A stretch of 64,000 bases of DNA, taken from Dudresnaya verticillata (Eukaryota). This document shows, piece after piece, positions 13,675 to 36,570 of the stretch. The position numbers and the translations under genes were made by a program. Below the pieces are notes generated by a model. That model ran no database searches. It was not told the origin of the DNA and saw only the letters and a program-made list of their open reading frames with translations. The stretch covers positions 62,001 to 126,000 of the forward strand of contig OZ374559.1 in NCBI GenBank assembly GCA_977862235.1, in the 5' to 3' direction. Each line of letters starts with the position of its first letter. The stretch's first letter is position 1.

Positions 13675-13756
13675 TAAACCCCTAAACCCCTAAAACCCCT
13701 AAAACCCCCTAAACCCCTAAACCCCTAAAACCCCTAAAACCCCCTAAACCCCTAAA
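13675..13756 (+). repeat. Interstitial telomere-like tract, ~10 units of C4-5TA3-4 (CCCCTAAA)
   Basis: Directly visible. The C-rich strand is on +, i.e. left-chromosome-end polarity. Confidence 0.85.
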
Positions 13757-14296
13757 GTCCTCACCCAGTAACGGAAGCAATCGCAAGAAGAGAACTGCTT
13801 CCGATCGCAAGAAGACAGCTGTTTCCAGTCCTCACACAGGGACGGAAACAATCGCAACTTGGCAACTGTTCCCGGTCCCCACCCAGGGACGGTATCAGTC
13901 GCAAGTTTACAACTGCTTCCGGTCCTCACACAGGGGCGGAAGCCATCGCAAGTTGACAACTGTTTCCGGTCCTCACACAGGGACGGAAGTAGTCGCAAGT
14001 TGACAACTGCTTCCGGTCCTCACCCAGGGACGGAAGCAATCGCAAGTTGACAACTGTTTCCGGTCCTCACCCAGGGACGGAAGCAAGTTGACAACTGTTT
14101 CGGGTCCCCACCCTGGGACGGAAGCAGTCGCAAGTTGACAACTACTTCCGGTCCTCACCCAGAAACGGAAGTAATCGCAGGTTTACAACTGTTTCCGGGC
14201 CTTACCCACAGACGGAAGCAATCGTAAGCTCACAACTGTTTCCGGTCCTCGCCCCACCGGGGACTGGAAGCATTCGCAAGCCGACAACTGCTTCCG
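13757..14296. repeat. 47-bp minisatellite (~12 units), each unit containing an 11-8-11 dyad (cluster A)
   Basis: Unit ggtcctcacacagggacggaagtagtcgcaagttgacaactgcttcc. The spacer is mostly CAAGTTGA. Confidence 0.9.
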
Positions 14297-14901
14297 CGCC
14301 CAGCTTCAACCAGGCCCGGAACATTTCCTATGCGGGGATCCATTCCTATTAGGTACGAAGACCTCAGGACTGGGCTTGGCGGTCCGGGGCAGGTACGCCG
14401 CAGAGAGCTCAAATGTTTAGGGACAGAGACAACCAGGCCAGGTACGGAGCCCGCCGTAATAACATATCTCGGTTGTCCTCTCCTCACGACATCAGTCTTT
14501 CCGTTCCATATGCGATTCTCAGCACAACCTGCCCATCTCCGGCCATGACACAAGTGTTCCCCGAGACACAGCAGACGTGGGGAGTTCGAGGTATCACGGA
14601 CGGAGATGTCAGGACTAATCTCAGCGGAAGGTACCTCTGTCGGTTGCTTGACTTATACCTGTTCCTGCCTCTCCCCAGCCCTAAACCCCTAATCCCTGAG
14701 GCAGGCAAGCCGCAGGGAGTTCAAAGGTTTAGGGACGGAGAGGCCAGGGCAAGGTTGCGCTGCTTAACGCACTACTCGCAAACTACATTACTACATTACT
14801 ACTACTCAGCGCTCGTGGGTCTTCCATGGGAACTCCAACGGTCTCTCCTCACATCCTGACGTCTCCACTTGTGGTGCTTCCATTCTTGTCTCGTCCGAGC
14901 T

Positions 14902-15123
14902 CGGAAGCAGTCACAGATGCTCAATTGCTTCCGCCCTTGTGCCCGCTCCAGCCCGGAAGCAGTTGATGTTTGATAACTGCTCCCGTTCTTTATTCCGCCA
15001 CGACCCGGAAGCAATCGCATGTCCACAACTGCTTCCGCTCCCCACACGCTGACGACCTGCCCATTGATTCCGCCCATCCTCCCAGCTCACCCGGAAACAG
15101 TCGCAAATCGACCATTGCCTCCG
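14902..15123. repeat. Dyad cluster B (4 copies)
   Basis: For example GGAAGCAATCG-CATGTCCA-CAACTGCTTCC at ~15007. Confidence 0.8.
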
Positions 15124-15210
15124 GGCCCTCTCGACAGCGTTTACGCGCTGCTCTCAACCTCTCCTTATGTACAGTATCTTACAAATTCGACTACCCTACA
15201 CTCTACTCCT

Positions 15211-18200
15211 TCAAGCCTGTTCGGTTTCCCCGTCCGACATGTCAGGGTATGAATCCTTGCTCGATTCTTCCTCCCCATCCCCCTCGCCTCTCGGTCCGTT
15301 GCGGGCCACTTGCGTCATTATATGCTCATGCACTATTTCGACGTCACCAGCAAACAGAGTGGAAACGGCTGTACTGCTGTTGAGTTTCAAGTTCCCCTCC
15401 GCAGGTTTTCGGAGCATCCTCTCAACCACTTTCGCCTTCTCCGAAAGCACCACGCCGTCGTCGAACAACTCCGCTTCATCTTTCAGCAGGGCTATCGTGC
15501 TCGCCACAACCATCGCAAATTTTTTCTGCTTCTCCTCTTCCGTGCCCTGCTTCAGCGCCTCGGATGCGCATCCCATGGTTATGCTTCCTACGGTGTTCCT
15601 ATCGTGAGTCCTCCAATTCCGCTTCTTCGCGATAGTCGGTGTGGCTCCACTGCTCCCTCGTGGTGCTACCGGTTGGTCGTCCGTCCTTCTAGCACTGACA
15701 GAGACGTCCTTCGAGCGGCCCGATTGGCTTTCCGGATTCGGCGGGGTTGTCGTTTGCCTCTGCACAGATCCCCGTACAGACGGTTCCTCGGATTGTGAAG
15801 GCATCGGCGGTTCCTGGTCGCTGGACGGTCCGTCTCTCTCACTCAGGGACGGTCGCATGCTTCTCCTTTCCGGTAGCGTCGTCGTCAGCGGTACGTCAAT
15901 TCCCTTCACGCGCGTGTACTCCGTCCTGTCCAGAAACTCCAGCATCGTCGCCTTGGCCTCCGGTTTCGCTTCGCCTTCACGCATCTCCAGTGTAATGGGC
16001 ACTTCGAGGACATGCCCAATCGTTGGCTCGCCTTCCCGTATATAGTACAAGACTCGGGATATACGTGTGGGAATCTTCAGTACACGCCAGGCATTACAAA
16101 CGCCTTTGTACCGCCCTGCAGCATCCTCGATGACTCGAAGTACGTCATAGTCAAACTGACTGCCACCCATGCGCGCCCTGTCCATTGCCTTCTTCGAGCG
16201 CATACCGCTAGCAACTGTACCTGCCCACAAATCCACGTCATACTTCTCCGTAAACATCAATTCACGGAGAATGATCTGCAAGCCTGGGAGAGCCATGGCA
16301 ACTATGGCACACATGTGCGGATTGAGGAGCTTCATCCCCAACGCGGTTTGTGAACGATTCACAGCCCTTATGAAGCAGCCCGTTCCGTCATCCTTCTTCC
16401 AGGTCCGTTTGGCAAATTCGTCGTACTGTGGCCTTCTGTGCCACGTGTTGCCTGCAAACCACCTATAGGCATCCGCGGTATTGTGCGGCATCGATGCTAC
16501 GCACTTCCCAGCACCAAGCACGCAGTTCACAGATCGTAACCCGAGTAGTCCACAGCACAGAAGAGTAGCTGCCCTCGCAGCTCTTGCCCCGATCTTTGCA
16601 GCTTCCCCAGTGACCGACGGTTCAGCCCCATAGTTGGATGCTTGGTAGTAGTATTCTTCCGATTGCGCGTTCGGTCGAAGCTTCCCAAGGCTCGTCAACG
16701 GCTTTGCCTTCGTGTATCCTCCAATCGGGGCCTTCGCAATCATGTTCGCGTCCCGGTATCTATCCATGCGGTTCACAGCGGTAACCATGGCAACCCCGAA
16801 AAACTCAGTCCGGATCAGTCTCCTCTCCCCCTCCGCAATGCAGAACAGGGCCACCTCGTTCAACGCATACGTCTTCTTCGTTCCATCCGCAAGAATCCGC
16901 CGCCCCGTGGGCTGGTGCATACTACTGAACAGAGCGTCGCATTCCTTAGTAAACTCCTTCTTCAGCCAGCGGTATCTTCGCCCATCGTACGGCAGCTTGA
17001 AGGGGTGAGGCACGCCCCCTTCTTCCAACGGTGCGTCCCGAGCGTCCAGTACTTCCAGCGCCCAGGTCACGGCCTGATCTTCACGTATCAGTTGATAGTC
17101 ATATCGGCAACCCATACATGCGTGCTTGATTTCATTGTCGGCAATCTACACACACCCACATATGAAAAGAAAGTCAGAGCAATCTTTCGCCATGCTCAGG
17201 AATGACTGCCTGTCGTCCTCAGCCTTCTGCCTGGACACCACCACAGCCGCAGCGTGATGTTCTTCCAGAGATGTCTGTGGTGCTCTCCTCATAGGACCCT
17301 CCTCGGCATTCGCTTGTAGTCGCGCCCGCTTCGCACCGGCTGTCTCCTTGGAAGCAGCGGCAGTCCGCCCTTCGCTTCGTCTACGAGGTTTCGCATTCCG
17401 ATTCTTCTCGGCAACCTCGCCGATAACTGAGCGTGTCACAATGCCAGCTCGCTCTCCGGCAACCAACCCACCGCGAAGGTACATGCGTGCCGGTTGTTTG
17501 AAAATGTCGTCCGTAGTACCCCATTCAACCATGTCGAGTATTTGTTTGGGCCACGGCCCTATCTCGACCCCCTGCTTAGCACGGGGCAGCAGGCCAGCAG
17601 GGTCCACCGTTCTTCCTGGAAGGGCTTGTGGATTTGCGATTGCTTCCGGAGATCCAGCACTCGGTCGCCTCGACGGTCCTCCGCTACTCTCCTCATATTC
17701 CATTCGCGGGAGGTCGCACTGCTCGCGTATCTTCTGACAAGTGTAAGAAACGGCGCGCTCACTTGCCACGCTGCCTACGGTCGCTTCTTTCGGTATTGCG
17801 ACACGGGTTGGCATCTGCCTCGTACTGCCTGTTCGTAGGCGCGCGCACGACAGAGCCATTTGCACAGGAGTCGTATGCCCGAGACTGGCAGTCGCTTCAT
17901 TCAACCGACTTGCGACAGTTGTCATGAGCCCCTCAAGCCACTTTCCAGCCGCCTTGATATCTCCCTTGTCCCCAGGCATACCCACCAACTGCTGTTGCGG
18001 AATAATCATAAGTGACGCATGCACTGGCACTGTACCGATACTGTTGAGCGCTGCAGCGGACAACCTCACGTTCCCATCATTGATGCCAAGTGGCAGGCTC
18101 GGGGGGAGTACGGGGTCCGGTCCTGCCTTCTTCCAAAGAGGTGGCGCCGGTGGTCGCATCCCCCTCTTGTACCGGTAGAGGTATATAGGCCCAGTCACAC

Positions 18201-19494
18201 TCTTCCCTGGCGGGGGGTGTTCCGCGATTTGCATTCTTTCCAGGTACTCATCGGGCACCTCCAGCTGCAGGGCAGTGGAGGTGGTCATCAGGGATACTTG
18301 CCCCATGCTTTCAATCCATCTCGCAACCTTGTCCCCTGCACTGAAAAAAGATTTCCCCACTTCGCGAATATTTGATCGTGTCGCAATGCGGATGTTCGAC
18401 AACGGCGTCGCCACGGGCCACTTCGTCTCGTCCCCGTCTTTCGGATACAAAGAGTGGCCGATCGGCTGCTTGAAAACAGTTGTGCTCTCAGAACCACTAA
18501 AGTTGACCATTCTCCACGTGTCGAAATACTGCATGACAATAGAAGGATGGGGCATTGCAAAATCGCCGTCCCAGTCGCCAGTCATCCCGACCCCACAGAT
18601 GCCTCTCGGAACCCCGCAATAAAATATAGGCTTCAGAGAAGGGGCCCGCGGAGGCGACAATTCCTCATCACGTTGGTCCCCGTCTGCAGGAGAAGCAGAT
18701 CTTCCGGGACTAACGCCCCTACGCGCAACACCGGAGGACGCCTGGACGTGACGACCGTTGCCAGTGGCAGCCACATTCGACACGTCACCCCGGCCCGTGG
18801 GGTTCGTACCGGCGTTCGATGGCGTGGAATGCCTCTTCTCCGGTGGAATCGGGCGTGACACCATCCCAGTTGCGCGTCGAGGTACGACAGCTGCCTTGTT
18901 CAAACCCTTCGGCGACTTCTCACGAGGTGTCGGTGTAGATGATGTCGCCTCCTTAGCGCCAGGTCGTGTACCCGCTTTTTCCATTGGCTCAGTACCCGCC
19001 TTTTCAGTCGGCTCAGTACCCGCCTTTTCAGTCGGCTCAGTACCCGCCTTTTCAGTCGGCTCAGCCTCTTGCGGTACCGACACGTTCTTCTCCGCGGTCG
19101 ACACCCCATTGACTGCTGACAGTTTGTCAGGTCCAGGTGCAGGACGACGGCGAGGTGCACTTGGTCGCGGCGCACTGCCAGAATCGGCCGCAGGTTTGTC
19201 TCCAGTCGGTACTGCGGGGGTTGGATCCTCATTCTCTCCGTTCCCTGTCGCCTTGGTAGGGGCTGGCGGACCATCCTGTAAAGTCTCAGGGCGGGGAATC
19301 CCATTTGCTCCAGCAGTCCCCCCAGAGCCGCCTACGCTCGGTGCAGCAGCTTCCTTGTTTGGTGAACCATCTCCATCGCGACTCCCACCCGAGCCACGTC
19401 GGCCTCGTCCGCCTGCACGTTGACGACGACTTCGTGTCGCAATAGACTTCCCGCGGCCTTTCCCTGCCCCACTTCTTTTCGGGCTGTTCGTCAT
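15211..19494 (-). CDS. Large hypothetical protein (~1,430 codons) interrupted by one in-frame TAG at 17146-17148
   Basis: ORFs 17146-19533 and 15211-17115 are in the same frame (CGCV*IADNEIKHACMGC). The N-terminus is low-complexity with 4x EPTEKAGT (24-bp repeat, ~18968-19063). Confidence 0.65.
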
Positions 19495-19539
19495 TTCGGT
19501 TTGCTCCCCCTCCTCAGCAGTTTCGTTCTGCACTTCTTG

Positions 19540-20314
19540 CGGAGGCAGTTGTCGGTTTGCAGCTGCTTCCGAGTAACGGACGTTGAGCGGAAGCAGTCGT
19601 TGGTTTGCAACGGCTTCCGGCCCTTCTAGATCGCAACGGGTGGACTTGGTGTAAAAGGATACCCGGTCTTACAGCTGGCGCAGCTGTCAGGTTGCAACTG
19701 CTTCCGGGTATTGTACGTTGCGGAAGCAGTTGTCGGTTTGCAACTGCTTCCAGCTCTTCTGGTCGCAACGGCCGGACTTGATGGAGAAGGAGACCGGTCT
19801 TACAGCGCAAGCAGCTGTCAGGTTGCAACTGCTTCCGGATAGTGCACGTCGTGCGGAAGCAGTTGTCGGTTTGCAGCTGTTTCCGGATCTTCTTGTTCGA
19901 AATTTGATGGTGAAGGATACCTGTCTTACAGCGGAAGCAGCTGTCAGGTTGCAACTGCTTCCGGGTAGTGCACGTCGTGTGGAAGCAGTTGTCGGTTTGC
20001 AAATGCTTCCGGCTCTTCTTGATTGTAACGGTCGACCTTGTCAGAGAAGTGCAGAGAAGTGAACACCGTCTTGCAGCGGAAGCAGATGTCAGTTTGCTAC
20101 CGCTTCCGGGTGGTGGAGGGTGATCCGGAACTGAACCGGAATTAGATCCTGTTTCGGTCCACGTGTTCCGGTCTTGAAGCAGAAGCAGTTCTGTGATTGC
20201 AACTGTTTCCGGGTCTTCTGCTCCGAGACGGACTTGTGCTTGATGAGGATCAAGGCTATGCCCGGAAGATCCAGTTTTCAGGCGGAAGCAGTTGCAAATC
20301 GTCTGCTGCTTCCG
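19540..20314. repeat. Dyad cluster C (~11 copies, spacer polarity opposite to cluster A)
   Basis: GGAAGCAGTTG-TCGGTTTG-CAACTGCTTCC alternates with TCAGGTTG spacers in a ~130-bp higher-order unit. Confidence 0.9.
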
Positions 20315-21049
20315 GTATGCTTCTCCCGTTTACGAGCTTGTCGGCAACCAAACCAAGTGAGAACAGTAGACCGATAGGAGCAAAGCGAGCACAGAGCTGG
20401 AGAAAACTAGTCAGACGCAGTGCCTTCCTCAACTTCTCGTCAGTGTCGTGGCGGAAGCAATAGAGACCTTGACAATTGCAAACCGCGGGGCACAGTAGCG
20501 GCGCAACCCTTCGTGTTCTGGACGACCTGGCTGTTGGTACGAAGCGGGCTACTCCGTTGCAGTCTTGATCAGGACGCTGCTGTAGCAGTGAGGTAGTGTC
20601 GAGTAAGCTCGTCGGTAAAGGGCCTCGCAACGTCGCGGATAAACGCTGCAGTTCCTTCCCACTGAGAGCGGTTATCCGCAGACGCACAGTGTGGCAGTGG
20701 CGCTCCTTGGTGGCGCGTTTGGGGCTTCGAGAAGAGCGCTGCGTCAAGAGGCAGTGACAGTGCGGTTCTGTGTCGCCACAGATCTCCTTCACAGTCCGAC
20801 AGCGGGAGCCCTCAGCAGCACTGGCAGAGCCGTGCGCAAAAGTACGACGGGAAGCCGTGTAGTACACCCAACGACGGCAGTCGGTGCGGTAGGGCGCCGG
20901 GTGGTAGGCAGCGACACAATGCGCCAGCCAGACAACGGGGCAGAAGTCTTGGTAGCTTAGCTAGCAGTAGTTGCGCAGTCGACAGCGAGTACAGCAGTGG
21001 CAATTCCAAACACACCCGTCACAGTATCTGTGTCGATGCAGAGGGTGCG

Positions 21050-21460
21050 GGTAGACTGCGCAGGCGCAGGTGCAGGCGCAGTGTGCCGGTAGAGTGCGCG
21101 GGCGGGGGCGCGGGCGGGTTCTTGGACTTATGTGTGCGGGCGGGGGCGCAGGCGCAGGTGCAGGCGCAGTGTGTCGGTAGAGTGCGCTGGCGGGGGCGCG
21201 GGCGGGTTCTTGGACTTATGTGTGCGGGCGGGGGCGCAGGTGCAGTTGCAGGCGCGGTCTTGGGGCTTGGTGCGCGGTCGGGGGCGCGGGCGCGGGCGCG
21301 GGCGAGGTTGCGGGCGAGGTTGCAGCGGTGACGGCGCGGGCGCAGGAGCACGCGCGGTGTTGCGGTTTGGTGCGCGGTCGGGGGCGCGGGCGCAGGCGAG
21401 GTTGCGGGCGAGGTTGCGGCGGTGACGGCGCGGCCGCGGGCGCGGGCGCGGGTGAGGTAG
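21050..21460. repeat. GC-rich low-complexity tandem duplications
   Basis: Duplicated ~89-bp block containing gggcgggttcttggacttatgtgtgcggg, plus gcgggcgaggtt repeats. Confidence 0.75.
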
Positions 21461-22223
21461 CGGTGTTAGCGTAGAGAGCACGGGCGCGGGCGCGACTGTG
21501 CGGGTTGGGGTGGCAGTGGCGGTGTCGGCGTGAGCGGGAAGAGGGTGGAGGGTCCGTCGGTGGGGGTAGTTATGCCGCGGAAGCAATCGCGGGCGGGCGG
21601 GCGGCGTACATGAAGGCGGGAAATCGCGCGACGACGGCCGACGACGGCCAACGGCTGCAGGTGATGATTTGTAATTTTTGCGCCAAACAGTGGGAGATTC
21701 ATATTCTTTCCAGATTATCGACTGGGCATTAGACAAGTGTCGACCTCTGCTTCCTCCACATCTCCCTAGCCCATCACACGGACATCTGTCCTCCCATCTC
21801 TCGCATCACCGGACTGCATGACCCGCCTGCTCCCCTCATCCGCACGCGGCTTTTCCCCATATCAATCCCGCACTTTCCCTCCCCCACCTTCCCACCGTGC
21901 AGCACTCCCCCGCTTCCTTCGTGTCCGCTTTTCCTTCCCGGCCGTCTTGTCGCTTGCAGCATTCGTCGCCTGGGCAGCCTTCATAGTCTTCCTTCCCTGA
22001 GGCCTATCCCGCAACCGCACCGCACCCCGCGACGACGGCGACCGATGGTGGTCCGCGCAGGTCCCGCTTTCCAACACCGCGACAGGCTATGCAAGTCTCG
22101 GGCTATTCCTCCTGCTCACCTTTTTGGACAACTGCGGCGTATGGCAGATTCTAGCGCGGGCTACTGCTCAGGCAGGCTGATGTGCGTCCGCACATCGGAG
22201 CATACGCACACGCAGTCTCCCTC

Positions 22224-23045
22224 ATGATGCACGCGGGGTTCTGGCATGACAGGGACCATGAACGCATCCTGGCACATCTCACTGCGCTGCTGGTGGCAAT
22301 GAAGCTTCATCTACGTGACAGTCGTGTCTTGTCCGAGCTGAGGGCGTTGCTGGATGAGCAGTACGTGCAGGTGTTCGAGGAGGACGTACGTGAGCTCCCT
22401 GTCCGATGCATGGACGTGCTGCTGGCCTATCTAGACTCTGTAGACGCTGTTGAGGAAACTGTTGTAGCGGAGGGGAATAGACCTATCTTTGTCACTGCGT
22501 TCACCATGCAAGCCAGTCTTTGGGAAGCAGACCGTGCGCTGTGGGAGTGCGTCGCGATGAAGGAGGCTCCCATCGCACCCGCGTTCACGCTGCACGTACG
22601 TGCGTTCGCGGCCATCTGTTTCGTCTTACCACATTTGGACGAGAGCGATGAAGCAGACTCTGAGGTTTGCTTATTTGATGCCCGCGCAGAGAGGCGCACA
22701 GAGCGCTCGCTGTTCACGCACCTTCTACTCTCTAGACCGTGGTTTGCACTCGTGCTGACATTTTCGTGGGCTTCGGTTGCTTACTCGCGCTTCGAACGGG
22801 CAGGCGGACTTTGGGAAGGGAGACTCCGCGCGGGATGTCACTCACTTGCAGCTAATGTTTACATCTTCTATCGCGACGATGCGATACATGCAAGAGATAA
22901 ACATTGCCTCCTTGGGCTGATTGCAGAAAAACCGCTGCTGCTGAAGGCTGAGCTACGCAACTCTCGAGACGTACGAGACGTCAGCGCTTTATTGACATCA
23001 ACGGACCTTGCAAGCATGTCTGGGGCCGATAAAATGACGTTATAG
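22224..23045 (+). CDS. Hypothetical protein (~273 aa)
   Basis: Uninterrupted ORF with protein-like composition and no recognised motif. Confidence 0.45.
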   Translation: MMHAGFWHDRDHERILAHLTALLVAMKLHLRDSRVLSELRALLDEQYVQVFEEDVRELPVRCMDVLLAYLDSVDAVEETVVAEGNRPIFVTAFTMQASLWEADRALWECVAMKEAPIAPAFTLHVRAFAAICFVLPHLDESDEADSEVCLFDARAERRTERSLFTHLLLSRPWFALVLTFSWASVAYSRFERAGGLWEGRLRAGCHSLAANVYIFYRDDAIHARDKHCLLGLIAEKPLLLKAELRNSRDVRDVSALLTSTDLASMSGADKMTL

Positions 23046-26000: not shown

Positions 26001-26952
26001 TTCCTATCTTGCTCCCGCAGGACACCAATACGCTGCGGTACGGTAAGCCATAAATCAGCGGGGTCAGGTAAGTTCTGGCAATTATCCGTACGCTAAGAGG
26101 AAGCCACGGGGGCAGTAGCCAGAGCAGTTGCGGTTGATTCAACACGCAGTACATCCAATTCACTCGAAACCTTCCCAGGTCCCTCGCGCGGGGTCGAATG
26201 CATCGTCTGGCCGTCTTATGGCACCCTGCATTACTCGAGAGGCTACTCGGGCATAGCACACTGCTGACCCGGTTTCGAAAGTTGAGAACGCGTTATTAGT
26301 TTCACTTCTTCTTCGCCCTCTTCCACACTTGGTCCTTTAACGCAGAAGCATGTCGCCAAGCGCGTACGGTGCAGCATTCCGCGCGCTTCACAACGGCGCC
26401 CGTGGCAACTGCAAAGCAACCATCGCGTTGATGAAACTGTCATTGTATGTCATAAACATGGCGCCACAGTGAGAGTAACTGCGCGTTCCACGTACGGTAG
26501 GACACCTGATCCCGTCGCGGCAACATCGTAGCTGCAATTCGTTTCATGTCCTATTGCTGCATATCAAACCCCGTTACAAAATGCGAGCTGCGTAAGGTGT
26601 CAATTGTTCCATCAGCTTGCATCTTGAGTAGCCAACTACGGCTGCTGGTCAGTTCACTGTAGGGCTGCCACCTGATCGTCCTGCCAACCTCTTTGGCACA
26701 ACATGCCTCTGTCGCAGCAATATTGTGTTTGCAATGCACTTGATGTCCGATTGCGGTAGATCGAATGGCATTACGAAAGGCGAGGTGCGTAACGTTTCAA
26801 TTGTTCCACCAGATTGCAATCTGCACATGAGACGCTGGGCCATTTCGGAAGAGGGCATGAGAAGAACTTTCAGCAAGGCGCAGAAAGACTTGTTGTTGAT
26901 TAGTAAGCTCATGCAGCAAGGAGCGGTGAGAACGTTGTCAACTCGAGCAACT

Positions 26953-27087
26953 CCAGGCACAAGTGCCGGAGAGTTGCTCAATTTGCAGGCGGCGCAGTTC
27001 ACCACGCATAGTGTTAGACCAGGCACAAGTGCCGGGGAGGTGCTCAATTTGCAGGCTGCGCAATTCACCACGCATAGTGTTAGACCC
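26953..27087. repeat. 66-bp tandem duplication
   Basis: ccaggcacaagtgccgg...catagtgttaga occurs twice. Confidence 0.85.
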
Positions 27088-28001
27088 TGAAACTCGCCGT
27101 CGGGAGGCAGGCCTGCCCTTTCCGGTTCAATGTATTGGTAGGTGCCACGGGTATGAAATCTGCTTTCACATACAGTTTCGACACCACTGGCGGGAGAAAG
27201 CCGAAGCCCACGCAGCAAACCAAGCTCCCACACTGCTAAACCAAGCTATTCGACGCCCTTCCCAAAAGGCGACAAACGGCTTTGCCACGGTCTCGTCATG
27301 CAGCAGAGCCGTCAGACGGTTTCACACAGCCAGATTCGCTGCAATCTTGACCAGCCCCAGTGCGGCTGCGTTGCCCATCGGTAGCGATGCGTGGGAGTAT
27401 TTCTGGACTGGGGCGGGATTTGGTCGCGGCACAACAGCGCCGCTCCAGCGACCCGCAACGGCGGCGACGATGTGCGGGCATCGTCGCGGGTGTCAGGTGG
27501 AGTTGGGAGCGTGGTGCGCAGGGGGGTTGTGCAGTGCACTTGACGGCGGTGACCGTTGCAGATCTTGAGGCAGCCGGGCGTGGTGCGCAGGGACAACAAC
27601 ACGTGTATGCAGCGGTCGTTGGAGGTGCGGGTGCTGCAGTCCGTTTCGAAACTTTACAACTTTTCTGAACATATTGTAGCTTGCCCTAAACGATCGGAGA
27701 TCAGTACTAAAATGCGACGCCGGTAGGAGACTCCTCTCCACCCTACTATCGACTGCGCGCGGAAACCAACCTCTACCCTCGCACTACCCTCACTCTCACC
27801 TCGCACTACCCAAGCTCCAACCTCAACCTACCCTGCTTCTTCTAACCTCGCGCTTTCCACCCCACTCTGGCGCGATCGACCCATCCTAGCGCGCGCGACC
27901 AACGTCCCTTTACCATTACCGCTTGCACCGTACGTCCGCGCGTTTTGCATTCCATCTTCCCCGACGACGGCGATATTACGATCACTCGCAACTGGCGCGC
28001 T

Positions 28002-28090
28002 CTGGTATTCGTGTTACGCTTGTTATCGTGTCAACACGTGCACACGGTGTGCACGTGTTGACACGAGAATGCGCGTAACACGAATACCAG
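28002..28090. repeat. 89-bp near-perfect palindrome (18-6-20-1-20-6-18)
   Basis: ctggtattcgtgttacgc / gcgtaacacgaataccag and tcgtgtcaacacgtgcacac / gtgtgcacgtgttgacacga are exact reverse complements. Confidence 0.95.
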
Positions 28091-28127
28091 GGTTGCCACG
28101 TGGACACGTATGCCTTGCATGCTTTCC

Positions 28128-28401
28128 GGAACCGTTTGCTGTTCTGCTTCCGCAGAAGCAGTAGAAGCACCGTGACAGCTTCCACAGTCGCGTCCCTGCG
28201 CGTCCCGCGGAAGCCGTCGCAACTCCACTACTCCTTCCGCAACGGATGCTTGCCTTGCCTCCACCTACTAACAGCTACCATCTGACCGCGGAAACAGTTG
28301 CCTATCTACATCTTTTTTCGCAACCATTAACTGTCATCTGCGCATTTGCTAACACTCCCAGTCTGTCTGCGGAGCCCGTCGCAAACCTATAACTGCTTCC
28401 G
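28128..28401. repeat. Dyad cluster D (4-5 degenerate copies) downstream of the YR-RecQ gene
   Basis: For example GGAAGCCGTCG-CAACTCCA-CTACTCCTTCC and GGAGCCCGTCG-CAAACCTA-TAACTGCTTCC. Confidence 0.65.
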
Positions 28402-28649
28402 CTGCATTCTCTCACTTCTCTAGCGCCTCGCGTCTTTCCGCAGATTCCGCAGCCGCCTCCACCATTGGTATCTTATACAACCTCCTTCTCCACCACCTCC
28501 TGCTCACCGTCCCGCGCTGCAACTTCGTTGCAGTTATTTACCCACTCCCGCGTCAAAAACTAACAATCATTCCTTTACTTCTATTCTCGCTTCACTTTAC
28601 ATATTCAAGGGACACACAGGTACGTGCTGGAGTCGCGTTCTTCACATTT

Positions 28650-31600
28650 CTACAACCCAAAAACCTCCACAGCATAGCGACAAAACTCTAGAATTCCGGG
28701 GCACCATCCCGGTTTGTCTACGAGAAGTTCCTCGCAAAACTGTTGCAGTCCTGTGCATCTCCTGAATCTCTGCATTCCCGTATGCTTCTTCATCTCCTCC
28801 CTCCACCGCTGGTTGTTCCACATCATCAGGGCCAGTTGCACAGGCCTATAGAAGGGACACCGCTCCAAAGATCCATACTCGTTCTGCCCCCGCAGTGGAC
28901 TACCGCTACCTACATGTGTCTTCTTCGAACCAAAGGTCTTCATCGAACATTCAGAACACCTGTTCGAAAAGAGCCCCCTCTTCGACTTCCAAGGCCGCAT
29001 CCCGCACTGTGTGGCCCTGTGCCCTGACTTCATGCAGCGAAAGCACAGTCCAAAGCTACAGACTCTGCAATGCTCCTTCGACTTCACCGCTTCAAGTCCG
29101 GCTGCATCCCCGGGTCTCGAACGCCCCCAGCACGGCGCGCATACCGTTCCCAGCTTCATCGAGAGATCCCGTAATTCTTCCACCGCATCCATCGCTCGCC
29201 GTCCGAACAGCAGCCACCACGCTGTCCTCCGGAGTACACTGTACGTCCAGACTCAACTCAGGTGCAGCTTGCAGCTGATTGCCCCCGCCCTCAGCTGGCA
29301 ACAGCTCCCCACTCGAATCACTGTCGTCGGTATCTCCCGCCAGCTTCTCCAGGTGTATCTGCGTCGGACTCGCATACACACCCCCGGTCGAGGCCAAGAG
29401 TACCGACGAGGCCTCCTCCAGGACTGGAGCAGGCTTGGCACATACATCGCACAACTGTACGGTCTCGTCTGGCAGTGTGGTCACACGCTCCGTACAGTTG
29501 CTCGGTACCTCCGGGCATCCCAGGTATTGCTCGATGGCCACACTTCGACACCGCCCCGTTTCTTCGGCCCATCTCTGGAATCGCTTAAGAGCCATCAGAC
29601 CCTCCGTGTCCCTTACATTTGCACGGTCCCCAAACTCACGGTGGTACAGTACACTCACAACCCCGCTCTTTCCATCCCTTCCAACCCGCCCGGCAACTTG
29701 GTACAGCTCCAACAGTGAACGGGTGCTCCCAACAATCACTGTCTTTGACACGTCAGGAGCATCAATTCCCGTCCCAAACCCTTCCGTAGCAATCATCACG
29801 CAAACGGTAAGCTCCCCCGCCCTCCCCCACTTCCACTGGGACACACTCCGCCGCCGCGCAGTATCATTCATCCCACTGTGATACTTCGATATCACAACCC
29901 TCCGGGATGCTTTAAACTCTCTCCTCGCGCAAAGGGCTGCATGCATATCATCCGCTTCACCCTTAGTAAGTACACACACCAGAACCTTCCCCCCCGCGCG
30001 CTCGGAAAAGGCCAGGCGTACCCCTGCCATCACACTGTCATTAACACACCCCATCACTTCTTCATCCTCCGCACTGGACAGCAGGTGCACACTGTACAGT
30101 ACATTGTTCCGCCGCATGCTTCCACGAACAACCTCCGTGTCCCCAACATTCGCACCACAGGCAGCAATTATCCTGTTCCCCATATGCACCGGGGCTGTGG
30201 CTGTCATCATTATCAGAGGGACACGCACGCGAGCCGGTCTCGCGTGACGCATCCGTAACATGCACTCCCGATAGTGCGCGCTCAATAGGATAATGTGAGC
30301 CTCATCCACAACAACCCTCATCAACTTCTTGTTCTTGTGCAACACGCGCAGAGCAGCCTTGTATTTCGCCAAAGACACATGCTCTGGCGCGGCCAGGATT
30401 ATACCTTTGCCGAATATTTCCATCTGTTCGTGATCATGGACGTCTTCGAAATCCAAAACGGGCAGCATGATGCTGTCGCACCGCTCTCTGATCTCCTCAC
30501 GCAACACACGAAGGGGGCATATGAAAACAGTCACCCCTTCCTCGCGCAATGCGGGCCCAAAAATAACCGCAGTCTTGCCAGCCCCCGTCCGAAGTACAAT
30601 TAACGCGCCCCTCTCCCTCCTGACAACAACCCTCATTGCATCCTTCTGTTTCTCACTCCTGAACTCAGCCTCAGGATCTCCAACCGCTTCCTGGAGACAC
30701 TCAACCAAACTCCATCGGGTCCCAGGTGACACGTCTTCATCAGACGACGAATACTCTCCCCTCTCACTTTCCAGCCTCTCCTTCTCATTAATTTGACGAA
30801 CGTCCTGTTCGTAAACATCCATTCTCTTTCCGATATCGGAAAGAAACCCGACCAGCTTGCTTAAGAGCTCAGGGTCCCCCGCCTTCGGCTTCCCATCCCT
30901 CTCCTCACCCTCACTCCGTCGAAGACCATGAACGCCCTTCTCCGCAGCAGCAGCATTCACTGCGTTCACACCATCCCCCCCGCTCTGCCCCCGTCCCTCC
31001 CCTCTCTCTCCTTCCCACGCCACCCCTTCACTCACGCCCACGGTCACCGCGTTCACATCCCTTGTCCCCGCCGCCGCACCCCGTTCTTCCGTTCTCTCTC
31101 CTTGCGACCCAGGCACTTCACTCGGGCCTGCTGCGCACCTCCCCCTCCGCCTCCGTCGGCGCAAGAACATCTCCTCCTCCATCACTGCGAATTTGAGCTT
31201 CCGACGCTTCCCGGTACCTTCCATGACTTCCGCATCCGCGGCCCATCGAACCCTCTTCTTCCCTCTCTCTTCACGGTTGCCGCCGCTGTGCGTGCCACTA
31301 GCACCACCGGCTGTATCCACCAATACCCTCACATCCCCCTCCTGCAGATCTACAGCACCTCTTTCAGTGCGCGACGGCGGTCGAGGGACAACTTCTCGCA
31401 TTCCCTCTGTCCCATTCCCGCTTTCAGCCTCCCCATCACCCTCCAAACGACCCATTTCCGCTCGGGGCACCTGTCCCGCAAAGCTCGGAGAGCCTGGCGG
31501 CAGTTGCAATTCCACATCTGCATCCGGCTCGCTCCCACCATTCCGAGATCCGAGGGACTCCAGCAGCTCCGGAAGCAGTTCCAAATCAATATGTGCTTCC

Positions 31601-34600
31601 GGGTCGCTCCCACCATTTCGAGATCCAAAGGACTCCGGGAGCTCCGGAAGAAGTTCCAAGCCGATATCTGCTTCCGGATCGCTCCCAGCATTCCTAGATC
31701 CGATCAAACCCGGAAGCAGTCGCAACCGATCTTCTGCTTCCAGCTCGCTTCCATCCCTGCTCACTCCCATTTCATCTTCCATCGCTTCCCCAAACAGTTG
31801 CCTCCTGACCCCGCCACCTCGCCCCGATTTCTTCTCCTGTTTGCGCCCTTCGGCCTCCGACTCACGCTCCTTCCGACTTCCGCCGACACTTCCCGGAAGC
31901 ACTCGCAACCCGGCAACGACTTCCGCAACGGAAATGCTTCCACACTCCACTCCTCCCCCGCTCGCTCCCCCCAACAACTGCCGTCGAACCCCCAAGGGCC
32001 CGACCGCTTCCTCCCTTCGTCTTCCACAATCCGTACCCGAGGCCTTTCCACTTCCTCCAAAGTCCTCGCCCTCCTCCTCGTCGGCCACAATTTCATTCCA
32101 GTCGACGTTGCTCGCCAACCCACAGTCGAGGAGCCACCCATCTGAAGCTCGCTTGAAATTCTTCATTCTTCGGTCGTCGATTTGCCCCCCTCCGGCAATG
32201 TTCGGTGCGCATGCCCCATACAGCGTCCGAGCCACCTCCATCGAATGCGCTCCCTGCACCTGCAGCACATTCCCGACAGCCCCGCCGCGCATCGCTTCCT
32301 CCTCCGATTGTTCCTGCGGAGTATTGCTCAACACCCTCGCTACAACCCGAAAGTCAGCATCCTGGTTCGCCTTGTCATTGGCATACCCGCCAAACCACTG
32401 CCGATGCATTTCGGCACTGTAATCTTCGGGCAACCCAAATTTCCTCCACATGATGGAGGCCATTTGCAAGCACCCGTTTCGAGCGCTCTCAGTGGGCATC
32501 AAGTAATCGTAAGCACCGTCTTGATCCACATCTTGGACCCTTCCTGACCCTCCCCGTTGCAGATGCCGGGACAGCGCCAGGCGCAAGTCCATACCGACAA
32601 GAATCATCACCTTGAGAAGATTGCTTGTCACCACATCCGGGTGCTTACTGATCACCCGCATCTTCCCTCTCTTCATGTTCCTGGTCTTGTCGTATGTCGG
32701 AATAACGGCGACCCGAGGTCCACCGGGAAACTGTATTCCTCGCGGTCCACTTGCCGTGTTCCTCACAGCCAAAAAACCCAGCTCCGGACCCCGGCACACA
32801 TTGCCTCCAGACAAGTGCATGCAGGCCACAACAAGCACATTGAACTTCCTTATAACAGACAGCATCTCCCTCGCCCGCTTGTCGAAAGCTCCGTCAGAAA
32901 GATGATCCATCTTCCTCACTGCCTCACCCACCAAATCTCGGCATTCCCGAGCAATATCCCCATTCCGTTCATCGGCCATGAACCCGTACGGGACCAGCTT
33001 CCTCGTCGTGTGGTCCACAATCTGGGACAGTCGCCCCTGAAAGTTCGTTGGCATCTCGACCCCTCCCAGAATACCATCCGCTCCAAACATCAGCCGCACC
33101 GCCTCTTTTTGCATCTTCTTCACGCAATGGCCAATCTCCTTCGGACTCATGTGCAGCCCCTCCACATATCCACAACACAACCCGTCGTGTTTCAGGTCTT
33201 CGCAAGGCATCCACGTGTTCCTCGCATACTCCTCATTTCGAAACCTTCGCGCCTGCAAACAAAGAGACTGGAGAAAGTGAATTCCAAGACTCCCGCCAGC
33301 CTGATGCCTCACTTCCACCCTGGCCAACTCTTCTTCACTCGTACCCTCCTCCGGGCTGCATATGTCCATCAACGCACAGCAAGAGCTCGCATACGCAAGC
33401 GCAGCAAGAACCGGGGACACATCCCTCCCTTGCGAGAAAGTAACACCCCTCCCTGCCCGCTTCACGCCGAGACAGGTTGTCAGGACATGGGCAGCGCAGA
33501 AGCGACTACCCTCATCCACGCTTACCTTCTCGTATAGCAAAGCCCTCAAGAGGCGGTGCATTGCTCGGACAGCTTCAGACCTCTTCCCCGGAACCGGTCG
33601 CAATTCGACATCTGCTTCCGCGTCCCGGTTCTTCTCCTCCAGGTACACAACCATCACCTTCGCACAAGCATCCCGTACTTCTTCACTACCGATCAACCCT
33701 TTCGCAGATTCAGGCCCATCCGTCATCCGCAAAAGACCCAGTGCCACACCTGCCACCGATGACGCATACCTCTTCCTCGATTGCTTCTGCACAAGCACAA
33801 ATTCTTTCTTGTCCGTCCTGTTCGCACCTGGCGGAGCTCGACAGCCAGCAACACTCTGGCCATGGACATATTTGGCCTTCCAAAGCACAGCCGCCCAGCC
33901 TCGAACAGCGAAAGAACAGTCTTCGCCAACCACTTTTTGAGATCCACCTCATCGGCTCCACAAACCATCACCCCCCCGCTCGCTTCCCCACACAGCTTCG
34001 CGGCCTCCTCCATGGACATTTTGAGCTGTTCAAGCTTCAAGTCCAGCCTCGTTGCACTCGCAAACCCTCCCATCTTCCTCACATCCTTTTCCACAGGCTC
34101 TTCCACTTCGACTCTTTCCTTCTCGACCTTCTTGAGCTCCTGCAGAAGACGTCGAACATTTGAAGTTCCCTGCCCACTTGCTTGCCCACCTCCACTAGCG
34201 TGAGTATTGCCCTCTACCTCGTCCTTGATAACAAACGGGTTTCCCACTGCGTTGGATTTGAACAGTTTCTGGCACTTCATGACCCCAAGTCTCTTCATCT
34301 CTGTGAGGGTAATCTTCTTTCCAGAAGACCTGTGCATTTCGAAATGCTTCTTCATCGACTCGGGAGAGGACGACATGAATGCCCACTCCGAGCAGGGAAC
34401 ACATTGCAACACCTTCAGAAACGGAATACGGCGCACACTGCAACGAGACATTTCTGGCGCACAAGTTCCTATGTACGCTCCGTACTCTTCTTCCGAGCAG
34501 CTCTTCACAATCCCGTCCTTCACGGTCTTCCATGCCTTGAAAATGTCGTTGGATTCCAAGCGACTGATTCTCCTACCCGGCTGGCACTTCTGTATATGCC

Positions 34601-34754
34601 TGAACAGGTTGTCAGCACCGCGCGCTCCAAAGAACACGGCATGTCGACACACACCGCATCCAAGCTCAGCAACCTCGGGAATCAGATGCAAGTTGTACTC
34701 AGCCAGCTTGGAAACCGCCGATTGAACAACCTCAATACGGTCAACTGAACCCAT
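28650..34754 (-). CDS. Zn-finger / tyrosine-recombinase-like / RecQ helicase / CCHC fusion resembling telomere-linked helicases, split by two frameshifts (~33836 and ~29190-29250)
   Basis: RecQ motifs: TGAGKT, PLRVL, DEAH, TAT, YHSGM, ATEGFGTGIDAPDV, QVAGRVGRDG and RQC CR...C...CDVC. YR-like motifs: SGGNVCRGPEL, YDK, MHRQ and GAHS...LYG. N-terminal CGVC...HIQKC and CVPC...HFEMH; C-terminal CFRCMKSGHRATQC. Confidence 0.85.
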
Positions 34755-34877
34755 GTCGTAATGCGGGGTCACCACAGCTTCCTCAACGTCACAAACCTCT
34801 CGTTCGATGAAAAAAGCTGCATATGTCGGAAAATGTGATTCAGGTTAGCGTACTGAGTATGCTTCCGTAGCAGTTCG

Positions 34878-35106
34878 GTGGAACACATCGCGAGTTCGCG
34901 ACTGCTTCCGGCGGAAGAAGTCGCGAGGTCGCGACTGCTTCCGGCGGAAGAAATCGCGAGGTCGCGACTGCTTCCGGCGGAAGAAATCGCGAGGTCGCGA
35001 CTGCTTCCGGACCCCCAACCGAGAGGTCTCCGGAAGCTGTCGCAAACCCGCAACTGCTTCCGCAGAGAGCTCCCCGGAAACAGTAGCTTACATTCCACTG
35101 CTTCCA
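34878..35106. repeat. Dyad cluster E (6 copies, four in a 33-bp tandem) upstream of the YR-RecQ gene
   Basis: cggaagaaatcg-cgaggtcg-cgactgcttccg tandem, plus cggaagctgtcg-caaacccg-caactgcttccg. Confidence 0.9.
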
Positions 35107-35677
35107 GGTGGCTCCCCAAGCACGCTTACGGTTTCAAAACTGGTGAGTAATTGCTTACCGGAATTCGAAAACGCAAGAAGTAATTACGGTAATTACGAAC
35201 GCTGGCCGTCGCTGTCGTCGTCGTCGTCGTCTCTCTCGTCGCAGTCGTCGCCGTCGTCACCGTCGTCGCTGTCGGAGCAACAGCAATGTTTCGCTCGTCG
35301 ATCGCGGTTCGTTCCGTCGCTCAACTGAAATGGGAAAAGAAGAGTTAGCGCACGCTTCATAGGCAGACAGGTCTCCCGCAAATAGTCGCAAGTCGCTCGC
35401 AACATCCGCTTCGCGACGGTGGGGGAGGAGGCTGAACGAACCTGTCGTCCCTAGGGTCGGGCCTTGGTGAGTTTGGTGGAGGGGAGGGGGGTGCTCGCAA
35501 CAGGCTACAGCCTTTAAGTACTGTTTTCGAACAGATCCTTCCTTCTGTTGGCGCGAGTACCGTTCCGGTTTCCATTTCCGCGGGAAAACTGTTACGGTTT
35601 CGCACGCATGACGTGGCGGCCGGCGTCGTCGTCCACGTCGCCGACTCGGATACACTTCACACATTCTGATCTCATCG

Positions 35678-36570
35678 GAGCTCAGATCCAGACGTGATCT
35701 GATCCATTCCTGATATCTAATCAGTTCTGTAACGTGTGTTTGCAAATGTTCTCCGGAAGCATCCGCAACCTAGCACCTGCTTCCACGGAACGATCTTGTC
35801 GTACCTACCCGGTTACTACCTTCCCTGTGGACCGGTTGGTCTTCCCCATGGACCAAACGCTCTTCCCCGTGGACCAAACGCTCTTCTTCACGTATCCAAC
35901 GCTCTTCCCTGGGACTCCGTCGGTCTTCCCTGGAACTGCATTGGTCTTCCCTGGAACTGCGTTGATTTTCCCTGGAACTGCGTTGGTCTTTCCTGGAACT
36001 GCGTTGGTCTTCCCTGGGATTGCGTTGGTCTTCCCTGGGATTGCGTTGGTCTTCCCTGGGGATTGCGTTGGTCTTCCCTGCAACTGCGTTGGTCTTCCCT
36101 GGGGAACTGCGTTGGTCTACTGGTCACGGTCGACGTCGACCATTCTGACTCCGATAGTCTTCACAGCTTCTCATCTCATCGAAGCTCAGATCCAGACTTG
36201 ATCGGATGCGTTTGGTATGTCGGGTCAGTTCTGGAATGTATGATTGCAAACGCGCTCCGGCAGTGTCCGCAACCTAGCACCGGCTTCCAGGGAACGGTAT
36301 TGTAGTATCTACCCGGTTACTATCTCCCATATGGTCCCGTTGCTCTTCCATGTGGATCCAACACTCTTCCCCGGGACCAGATAGTGTTCCCTGGGCCCCT
36401 GTTGGTCTTCCCTGGGACTGCGTTGGTCTTCCCTGGAACTGCGTTGGTCTTCCCTGGGGACTGCGTTGGTCTTCCCTGGAATTGCGTTGGTCTTCCCTGG
36501 AACTGCGTTGGTCTTCCCTGGGCATTGCGTTGGTCTTCCCTGGGAATTGCGTTGATGTTCCCTGGGACGC
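35678..36570. repeat. ~500-bp diverged duplication, each copy with one dyad followed by a 21-bp minisatellite (gcgttggtcttccctggaact)
   Basis: Shared leader agctcagatccagac...gcaacctagcacc at ~35680 and ~36183. Arrays lie at ~35900-36118 and ~36398-36570. Confidence 0.9.

Follow-up and report, generated by a model that had tools for sequence, protein, structure and literature searches.

A broken TLH-type gene with a predicted tyrosine-recombinase domain and 43 oriented dyads in a 23-kb block of Dudresnaya verticillata

Genes for telomere-linked helicases (TLH) came to light more than twenty years ago. In fungi, the available descriptions place TLH regions at most chromosome ends, with telomere-ward genes, tandem repeat arrays and internal telomere repeats, and one TLH-region repeat retains a 23-bp palindrome (PMC1635262; 10.1101/2024.02.27.582403). 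As far as these accounts extend, they leave the function of the middle domain open and name no recombinase (PMC1635262; 10.1101/2024.02.27.582403); the 2024 Fusarium paper still calls TLH function undetermined (10.1101/2024.02.27.582403).

Several other systems resemble the locus described here in part. Yeast Y' elements are helicase-coding subtelomeric units that can be stacked in tandem at chromosome ends, but they measure 5-6 kb and are described without a recombinase domain or dyad arrays (PMC1635262). Cryptons are eukaryotic DNA elements with a tyrosine recombinase and ends that are hard to define; their source gives them 4-6-bp terminal direct repeats and nowhere uses the word helicase (PMC3212892), whereas our locus carries a helicase fusion and has no match to DUF3504 or GCR1_C. 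Starships resemble our locus as large units with an inward-pointing recombinase gene at one end and passengers behind (PMC10104507); here, by contrast, there is no DUF3435 match but a helicase fusion and a telomere link. The initial annotation had likened the locus to Cryptons and Starships, a comparison with which its gene content disagrees. It had also called the locus a candidate undescribed element. The TLH architecture, arrays, palindrome and internal telomere repeats are already published (PMC1635262; 10.1101/2024.02.27.582403); what stands is that our literature search, covering few subscription papers, found no paper naming a recombinase in TLH or a red-algal TLH. In the one paper found that joins Crypton, tyrosine recombinase and RecQ, RecQ refers to Academ.

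Layout of the block

The window, meaning the whole stretch analysed, comprises 64,000 nucleotides of D. verticillata (GCA_977862235.1, contig OZ374559.1, positions 62,001 to 126,000, forward strand), and coordinates below are those of the window. The dyad-bearing block of about 23 kb that had been drawn from the last telomere-like unit onward is confirmed, and its main features, apart from the dyads, are the following.

13,675-13,756, plus strand: internal telomere-like tract, with the C-rich strand on plus and units of 3-4 A, 4-5 C and T
15,211-19,494, minus strand: orphan gene, about 1,430 codons (4.3 kb), with an in-frame TAG at 17,146-17,148
21,050-21,527, unstranded: G-rich degenerate tandem repeats with 88/94-bp periods and without a continuous reading frame
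22,155-23,045, plus strand: partial bestrophin-like frame (Pfam Bestrophin_2, E 1.5e-12, model positions 111-230 of 288)
28,002-28,090, unstranded: imperfect palindrome of 89 bp, with 44-bp arms and a 1-bp loop
28,650-34,754, minus strand: TLH-type gene, ~2,030 codons (~6.1 kb)
35,625-36,568, plus strand: duplicated 504-bp proximal unit, each copy with one degenerate dyad (35,754; 36,258) and then a 21-bp tandem array

In type the tract agrees with the telomere of Bostrychia, a red alga, as reported, and both large genes, on the minus strand, point toward it. This telomere type and the expansion of Sel1 genes in red algae make a red-algal origin probable. The proposed telomere association holds as a link to telomere-like repeats; the tract itself, though, is just 82 bp long, includes an exact 35-bp duplication and is internal: on its far side come another 13.7 kb of DNA that carries genes, and a second tract at 6,502-6,546. 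The right end of the block has no sharp boundary: the 504-bp proximal unit is the last element-like sequence, and repeats common to the rest of the window start at 36,844. Self-comparison of the block found no terminal repeat besides the dyads, and no short direct repeats or terminal inverted repeats. The 23 kb may perhaps consist of a core TLH unit of about 8.6 kb, at 28.0-36.6 kb, and a second, dyad-bearing module.

The palindrome named in the initial annotation is well marked (arms 91% complementary, z = -11) and lies 560 bp past the TLH-type gene, with C-rich degenerate repeats to its left at 27,766-27,824. The cargo proposed in the same annotation shrinks to the bestrophin-like frame, which has a weak PDB match. 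It is one frame among 64 scanned, and no other passenger is recognisable in the dyad-poor 21.7-27.7 kb. A search of Rfam gave no match.

The first ~300 residues of the orphan gene product are of low complexity, and no relative, family or fold was found for it; residues 1-420 of the C-terminal frame were the query for the Atlas and for a large protein search, which covered near lengths. Atlas rows at 0.91 had just 126-128 of 256 features in common with it. A single-sequence model was unusable (pLDDT 31). A second, degenerate recombinase was considered for this gene and rejected, with a profile comparison probability of 0.1% and no match to the domain HMM.

The TLH-type gene and its predicted recombinase domain

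The TLH-type gene encodes, in order, two zinc-finger-like motifs, a domain with a predicted tyrosine-recombinase fold, a long linker, a RecQ helicase and a C-terminal zinc knuckle. It is broken by frameshifts near 33,840 and 29,230; introns are an unlikely cause of the breaks, inspection by eye finding no frame-restoring GT-AG pair of plausible length. Its principal parts are as follows.

32,119-33,786, minus strand: predicted tyrosine-recombinase domain, core-binding and catalytic
32,793 (R), 32,688 (K), 32,403 (R), 32,247 (H) and 32,220 (Y), minus strand: codons of conserved residues, from an alignment of homologs
29,440-30,770, minus strand: helicase core of RecQ type (SF2), in which Walker A, DEAH and motif VI are present, followed by a cysteine cluster

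Published TLH units share with this locus the RecQ helicase, a gene facing telomere repeats, internal telomere repeats, a palindromic repeat nearby, frameshift-broken copies (many in TLH) and tandem arrays both between gene and telomere and just upstream of the start codon; the two N-terminal zinc-finger-like motifs and the conserved middle domain probably correspond as well. The distance from array to start codon is about 125 bp here and 181 bp in Magnaporthe TLH, and the 28.0-36.6 kb core fits the 6-13 kb of Fusarium TLH regions. The gene is longer (~6.1 kb as against a published 4.7-4.9 kb), and its 3' end lies 15 kb from the telomere-like tract, with dyad tandem repeats alongside, compared with 2.2-5.5 kb in Magnaporthe. 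Two further features are unlike TLH: one oriented 32-bp dyad forms the common core of most arrays and also occurs inside both genes, and a second gene, of 4.3 kb, shares the dyads. The TLH assignment is by architecture, made from published descriptions.

The N-terminal fingers are two C-x2-C...H-x3-[HC] motifs that match neither published TLH pattern exactly, their spacing being slightly off; their match to zf-H2C2_5 is weak (E 0.06), and the N-terminus aligns with that of an OrsD-positive homolog at E 4e-5. The helicase is recognised by Pfam (DEAD 9.5e-13, Helicase_C 1.3e-10) and by recQ_fam at 5.8e-31, a score under the whole-protein cut-off, and the best PDB matches of its family profile are RECQ5 and BLM. 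The middle domain is matched by 115 proteins, 57 of them at E <= 1e-10, mostly with an OrsD plus helicase layout; among 22 homologs scanned, 19 have DEAD and Helicase_C and 14 the OrsD finger domain. In the Atlas, the neighbours of the middle domain are unnamed clusters of fungal proteins, at 0.97, and, at 0.86, a cluster of OrsD. A word-indexed protein search returned no match for the recombinase region and only distant RecQ proteins (9) for the helicase, and Pfam gave no family for the recombinase domain at E <= 10.

The fold assignment rests on structure prediction. When the model of the domain (pLDDT 80.7, pTM 0.80) was compared with 48,161 chains, eight reached Z of at least 8, seven of them tyrosine recombinases and one a type IB topoisomerase. 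The best matches were XerA (9.8), IntI (9.7), XerH (8.9) and Cre (8.3), Z values of 8-10 being modest for a helical 630-residue model and some rmsd values being 4-15 A. The top six matches aligned 251-285 residues and covered both domains; a repeat comparison gave five Cre/Tre/XerA rows at Z 8.3-9.3, the next row standing at 5.0. Foldseek found no match at E <= 0.001 in the PDB or among viral models. The best viral model by probability was an uncharacterised Feldmannia virus protein (E 0.02, TM 0.36), which we record as a lead only.

The active-site residues, assigned by motif order rather than by superposed coordinates, are strongly conserved in an alignment of 77 homologs (R 76/76, K 76/76, R 67/70, H 68/68, Y 68/69), and in the 43 homologs of at least 1,400 aa all five are present but for one R. 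The H and Y are nine residues apart. The H-x-x-R box lacks conservation at its histidine position, which holds E in our protein and, in homologs, usually S, T, N, Q, D or E. Type IB topoisomerases likewise lack this histidine. As the initial annotation had proposed in calling the gene YR-RecQ, the middle domain, joined to a RecQ helicase, has a predicted tyrosine-recombinase fold in which the active-site residues are conserved. Its likeness to Cre/loxP, Xer/dif, IntI and Flp/FRT recombinases lies in the predicted core-binding and catalytic fold and in the R, K, R, H and Y; the zinc-finger and RecQ fusion and the unconserved first H of the box set it apart from these simple enzymes.

A different reading, which we regard as somewhat unlikely, has the domain nick and close DNA in the manner of a type IB topoisomerase and so assist RecQ in a back-up route of telomere maintenance. 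The dyads would then serve for binding alone, whether by the zinc fingers, by the orphan protein or by some factor of the host, in silencing, autoregulation or end protection, and the unit would spread by ordinary subtelomeric recombination. Type IB topoisomerases score nearly as high as the recombinases (Z 7.9-8.2, catalytic part only), the missing histidine fits, and the S. pombe tlh genes are reportedly induced and helpful in telomere crisis (10.1101/2024.02.27.582403). Our model, however, also aligns over the integrase core-binding domain (3nrw, Z 5.6), and its top rows span model residues 11-580.

It is very improbable that the domain is instead a hairpin-telomere resolvase cutting the 89-bp palindrome to leave a covalently closed end or a linear episome, with the dyads as accessories. 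The long palindrome close to the gene, the presence of TelK (Z 5.4) and TelA (Z 4.8) in the fold list and the short palindromes at the outer ends of the repeats of a related locus (L002, below) would suit a resolvase, but simple recombinases score far higher than protelomerases, there is just one palindrome, which is imperfect and lies internally, and the organism has ordinary repeat-type telomere sequence.

The 32-bp dyad

The dyads are arranged in five groups and several single or in-gene positions.

13,757-14,296, plus strand: array A, a 47-bp tandem unit of 32-bp dyad and 15-bp linker, with 10 full and 2 partial dyads (first 13,772)
14,902-15,123, plus strand: cluster B, 4 dyads just beyond the 3' end of the orphan gene
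17,617, opposite-facing: single dyad, in frame within the orphan gene
19,540-20,314, minus strand: cluster C, 11 dyads at the 5' end of the orphan gene
28,153-28,401, plus strand: cluster D, 4 dyads
31,495-31,925, plus strand: 5 in-gene dyads, in frame, in the recombinase-helicase linker of the TLH-type gene
33,589-33,620, plus strand: 1 in-gene dyad, in frame, inside the recombinase domain
34,879-35,106, plus strand: cluster E, 6 dyads, four of them in a 33-bp tandem, located ~125 bp ahead of the start codon of the TLH-type gene
35,754, plus strand: single dyad in the 504-bp proximal unit, with a weak extra copy at 36,258

Sites were sought as a 10-base arm and its reverse complement with at most 4 mismatches in all and gaps of 6-19; the 12-base gap gave 39 sites, all 39 inside the block, against 0-4 at each other gap, and ten shuffles gave 0-1. 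With 5 mismatches allowed there were 44 sites, all within 13,772-35,785, and leaving out the weak site at 24,215 gave the 43 dyads used. These score 18-47.5 bits on a matrix trained on the same 43, compared with a best of 14.3 bits outside the block and 14.5 over five shuffles. The inner 12 bases, which played no part in the site search, hold 10.2 bits in 22 hand-picked copies from all clusters, and 2000 random sets under the same orientation rule have a mean of 1.9 and a maximum of 3.4 bits. Conservation drops 1-2 bases beyond the 32-mer. The confinement of the dyads to the block, claimed from the outset, thus stands, with 43 copies at 13,772-35,785 and no strong copy in the other 41 kb.

Clusters flank both telomere-ward genes as annotated, A/B and C the orphan gene and D and E the TLH-type gene, and dyads lie in frame inside both as well, all seven copies within coding sequence keeping one reading register. 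The copies share one orientation except for 17,617 and ten of the eleven in cluster C (20,283 has the common orientation).

The recombination-site-like character ascribed to the arrays is borne out by their geometry. Sites of Cre/loxP, Xer/dif, IntI and Flp/FRT consist of two inverted arms around a one-way spacer, as does the oriented 12-8-12 (arm-spacer-arm) dyad. All 43 copies fall within the rule given for tyrosine-recombinase sites, 11-13-bp inverted arms and a 6-8-bp spacer (PMC3212892). The 8-bp spacer is one-way, conserved in its first three bases (C 40/43, A 36/43, A 36/43) and variable in the middle, where the commonest base at positions 4-7 occurs in at most 21/43; 32 different spacers occur among 44 copies. 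Judged by sequence, the dyads are likely target sites of the recombinase domain of the TLH-type protein. Simple tyrosine recombinases have one or two sites, in contrast to the dozens with variable spacers here, and 43 sites, seven inside genes, are unlike any known crossover-site system; they could equally be plain binding sites. The variable spacers and the clusters at both promoters and inside both genes favour binding sites with a topoisomerase-like enzyme, against which stand the recombinase-target geometry and the one-way spacer.

A full system of Cre/Flp type, in which matching dyads would excise the unit or an orphan cassette as a circle or invert segments, with 2-micron-like amplification and telomere re-integration, is improbable. 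The 12-8-12 geometry, the direct outer clusters with an inverted cluster C, the place of Cre among the best structural matches and the identical 6-bp cores at 15,092/20,283 (either side of the orphan gene) and 14,265/31,645 speak for it, yet dispersed copies match in their spacers no more often than chance allows (2 matches against an expected 1.3, P = 0.35), and matching spacers were rejected as paired crossover sites on that ground. Most spacers differ. Active sites in such numbers would shred the unit, and the helicase would be left without explanation.

We find it quite improbable that the dyads belong to a satellite local to this genome, or to one of its families of short palindromic repeats, in a mosaic subtelomere made up of the TLH gene, an unrelated orphan gene and captured fragments, with sites and enzyme functionally unlinked. 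Many dyads are indeed tandem duplicates, the left-hand segment of the window has a different dyad repeat, and the middle ~6 kb of the block holds just one weak copy; but the rest of the window has no strong copy, dispersed copies keep the 32-mer while their flanks diverge, in-gene dyads keep frame, and the dyad at 33,589-33,620 fills a loop absent from most homologs (core columns filled in 6/77).

A related locus, too, argues against an unlinked satellite. L002, a distant, intact relative located via one homolog, lies between two dyad-rich clusters that make up an inverted pair of 71 bp (82%, E 1e-13) and in this one locus form terminal inverted repeats, a layout unlike that of our block. Sequence kinship of these repeats with the 32-bp dyad was rejected, being not above shuffles. 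A resemblance of the arms of Magnaporthe HAR-D to the dyad arm (GAARCAWT vs GAARCART) was post hoc, with arms opposite-facing, and was discounted. Scans found no related locus in viral contigs, in metagenome contigs or, with the window protein as query, in prokaryote genomes; 400 further genomes of the phylum of L002 yielded no more, and plasmid and phage records gave no match. The dyad pattern had 0 matches in metagenome contigs and one lone hairpin, taken as chance, in viral contigs.

A possible mode of spread

The explanation we rank first, while rating it a little short of probable, is that the block is a broken and likely formerly terminal TLH-type unit whose predicted recombinase-RecQ protein likely targets the dyads, thereby spreading the unit between chromosome ends. 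Each 12-bp arm would be bound by one recombinase subunit, and the recombinase would start one pair of strand exchanges between two dyads. Because the spacer is variable in its middle, two sites would usually permit only one such pair, as with CTX phage and XerC. In the model for CTX/VGJ phage integration, XerC carries out one strand-exchange pair with homology on only one side of the overlap, and replication finishes the process (PMC3442271). Those phages use host enzymes, one chromosomal site and no fused helicase, and the analogy to our block is ours. Here, the junction so formed would be shifted by the fused RecQ and converted to a fork, by which the donor would be copied all the way to the end of the chromosome. 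With many oriented sites a start would become more likely, and cargo lying among the dyads or past them, such as the orphan gene, would be carried along. A later 13.7-kb addition would have buried the former end, after which both genes would have decayed.

We count the flanking dyad clusters of L002 in favour of this spread by strand exchange and copying. Counting against it is the junction of the tract with the first 47-bp repeat, which falls at the base where the dyad ends in other units, i.e., at the outer edge of the dyad unit and not in the spacer, where the recombinase would cut. A broader proposal, possible in our view but doubtful, is that TLH units from fungi to algae are unrecognised eukaryotic selfish elements, a recombinase-helicase "telomere hopper" that lays down arrays of its own lox-like sites within its genes and on either side of them, starts recombination there by one strand exchange and reaches the chromosome end through RecQ-driven copying; the orphan gene would be a standing part, and the dyad the first visible substrate. 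As a whole, the earlier interpretation, a self-mobilising or telomere-maintaining unit with visible cis sites, is partly supported.

The locus likely extends the TLH family to red algae. Given a predicted recombinase fold whose active site is conserved, TLH proteins can be seen anew as enzymes with a possible part in cutting and rejoining the DNA of chromosome ends. The candidate substrate at this locus, lox-shaped, oriented and with sharp limits, occurs in 43 copies, all of them within the unit, and would make the job of TLH testable. If confirmed, this would provide a mechanism for the spread and stacking of subtelomeric units, a back-up that may work without telomerase, and a new pairing of recombinase and site.

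Lox-shaped dyads in a telomere-linked block

When the 64-kb window was searched for a 10-base arm paired with its inverse, 39 pairings were obtained at a 12-base gap, as against 0–4 at the other gaps tried and 0–1 in shuffles; all 39 (39/39) lay inside the block (approximately 13,757–36,570), and the initial annotation's claim that the dyads are confined to it therefore stands. The set used below comprises 43 sites (44 at five mismatches minus one weak site). Each dyad follows a 12-8-12 layout, with arms CGGAAGCAGTYG and CAACTGCTTCCG enclosing a spacer that starts with CAA and has a variable middle, and this geometry fits the recombinase-site rule of 11–13 bp arms around 6–8 bp, as given in PMC3212892. 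The inner 12 bases, which played no part in site finding, carry 10.2 bits in 22 spread-out copies versus a null maximum of 3.4. The sequences flanking dispersed copies are unrelated to one another; thus, the conserved entity is the 32-mer itself. The dyads are directional, the copy at 17,617 and ten of those in cluster C (19,540–20,314) being opposite to the remaining copies. Seven copies lie within coding sequence in a single register, which also avoids cysteine codons, and the copy at 33,589 forms a loop insert whose core columns are filled in only 6/77 homologs.

Full excision or inversion at sites of this shape appears unlikely, because 32 different spacers among 44 copies, together with spacer matches at chance level, argue against clean Cre-like pairing. 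The palindrome noted initially is real (89 bp, z = −11), and beside it the reading of the system as a hairpin resolvase was weighed and judged highly improbable. Immediately left of the palindrome, C-rich degenerate repeats (27,766–27,860) look like decayed telomere units and may mark an earlier terminus of a shorter core unit.

The telomere-linked-helicase-type gene and its middle domain

Judged by its predicted layout, the large gene at 34,754 to 28,650 on the minus strand appears to be of TLH (telomere-linked helicase) type. It is split over three frame segments, and homologs align to it in frames −3, −2 and −3, which places its breaks near 33,840 and 29,230. From its N terminus, the product has two zinc-finger-like motifs, then a conserved middle domain that a linker of 400 residues joins to a RecQ helicase, and finally a weak zinc knuckle. 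This layout matches that of TLH proteins in Salimi et al. (10.1101/2024.02.27.582403), with a zinc-finger spacing that departs a little from the patterns in print. For the middle domain, 115 relatives were found, the Atlas groups it with fungal clusters, and the relatives scanned carry a helicase in 19/22 cases and an OrsD finger domain in 14/22.

In the 77 of the 115 relatives that yielded a 350–800-residue region (numbering per window:32059-33948:-), R386 (76/76), K421 (76/76), R516 (67/70), H568 (68/68) and Y577 (68/69) are conserved; the H-x-x-R histidine is not present. A structure model from 47 sequences was confident (pLDDT 80.7) and, compared with 48,161 chains, gave Z of at least 8 for eight, namely seven recombinases and one type IB topoisomerase. 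In a second comparison, the five rows at Z 8.3–9.3 were all Cre, Tre or XerA, the next being 5.0; these matches are modest in Z, with rmsd of 4–15 Å, and a Foldseek search with the model returned no match at E ≤ 0.001. In its conserved residues and modeled fold, the middle domain resembles a tyrosine recombinase. With a topoisomerase among the neighbors, the dyads might instead be binding sites only, the domain having a topoisomerase-like role in telomere upkeep, a possible but doubtful alternative. Ranked by probability, the top viral structural neighbor comes from Feldmannia species virus, an uncharacterized protein of 620 aa (E 0.02, TM 0.36; model of window 32059–33948), and this match could hint at an algal-virus recombinase link.

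An intact 1,608-aa TLH-type homolog (P0047) is encoded on L002, a contig of 7.5 kb assigned to a bacterial genome bin. L002 is probably eukaryotic and a contaminant of the bin; 400 other genomes of that bin's phylum yielded no such locus. Its gene is flanked by a 71-bp inverted pair (1148–1218 and 7307–7377; 82% alike, E 1e-13), each end being composed of short palindromes and 13-bp repeats; a second TLH-type gene thus has dyad clusters on its flanks, in this single case. Unlike the window dyads, to which they are unrelated in sequence, these repeats are terminal in layout. The gene with its ends looks like a compact element, 6.2 kb long and bounded by terminal inverted repeats.

Block contents and chromosome-end setting

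The orphan gene (19,494–15,211, minus strand) is interrupted by a stop codon in frame at 17,148. The searches run gave it no relative, family or fold; because it shares the dyads, it is probably a component of the unit. The "cargo" proposed initially shrinks to a partial bestrophin-like frame, the only recognizable one among 64 frames in the middle 6 kb, where the sole dyad is the weak copy excluded from the 43. At the right-hand side, a 504-bp unit present in duplicate finishes at 36,568 and different repeat families begin at 36,844, the end of the block being approximate. That the block is a mosaic subtelomere and the dyads a repeat with no link to the enzyme seems decidedly unlikely beside their confinement to it.

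Other features of the window are as follows.

Features outside the block
457–1635 (minus), 2002–3406 (plus), 5081–6412 (plus), 8977–10173 (minus): four-member orphan gene family, long single frames, distal to the 13,675 tract
3606–3698 and 7004–7300: different dyad-bearing repeat, 93–102 bp, arms 21–24 bp, four copies
6502–6546: second internal telomere-like tract, polarity as the 13,675 tract
10466–12151 (minus): orphan frame, 561 aa
12536–13131: degenerate ~200-bp repeats between the 561-aa frame and the telomere tract
37960–40578 (plus): non-LTR retrotransposon frame (reverse transcriptase), flank 98% identical to 53,115–54,064
44037–48902 (plus): Sel1-repeat, Roc GTPase and TIR gene, 11-copy 111-bp repeat
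near 51,160–51,800, 54,926–56,296 and 58,665–59,600: rearranged partial Sel1-Roc-TIR copies
60802–63573 (minus): copia-type pol frame

The reverse transcriptase, copia-type pol and Sel1-Roc-TIR genes make the window eukaryotic. Sel1 expansion is a feature of florideophyte red algae, and the Sel1-Roc-TIR genes form an immune-receptor-like cluster. The telomere-like unit (G strand: 3–4 T, A, 4–5 G) is of the same type as the telomere reported for the red alga Bostrychia (10.1101/2025.02.11.637652). Together with the Sel1 expansion, it makes a red-algal source likely.

The tract at 13,675, which is 82 bp long and includes a 35-bp stretch duplicated exactly, meets array A, the 47-bp dyad repeats, at the position where a dyad would end, and distal to it lie 13.7 kb with the orphan family and the second, same-polarity tract; it reads as a former chromosome end that was extended later, the two tracts suggesting stepwise addition of segments. 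Three copies of the 93–102-bp repeat sit about 460 bp internal to the tract at 6,502, an arrangement like that of array A, and this repeat may be the sign of another type of telomere-linked unit. The orphan family (plus-strand copies 49% identical, others E 1e-8 to 1e-12) has no Pfam match, nor PHROG or NCBIfam matches in the members scanned; it appears to be a subtelomeric gene family.

Relation to known elements and a possible mechanism

In Magnaporthe (PMC1635262), a telomere-pointing TLH gene stands at 11/14 ends, with associated-repeat arrays on its flanks; a 23-bp palindrome is conserved in one of these repeats, and only 4/11 copies are intact. Fusarium TLH regions (10.1101/2024.02.27.582403) are 6–13 kb, stacked and contain internal telomere repeats. 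The overall anatomy of the block is therefore already known. The initial description as an undescribed element holds in part: the TLH family, anatomy and subtelomeric setting are published, and the recombinase reading was not found in the papers searched. A literature search, with most subscription papers outside its scope, turned up none that links TLH to a recombinase or to a red alga. Crypton and Starship (PMC10104507) identities were rejected, since the gene content does not fit.

On the basis of the 64-kb window together with protein relatives and a single related locus, we tentatively favor a unit that would seed copy-to-the-end recombination at its dyads, every enzymatic step of which we infer. 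The 43 confined, oriented, lox-shaped sites are a concrete candidate substrate for testing the role of TLH proteins.
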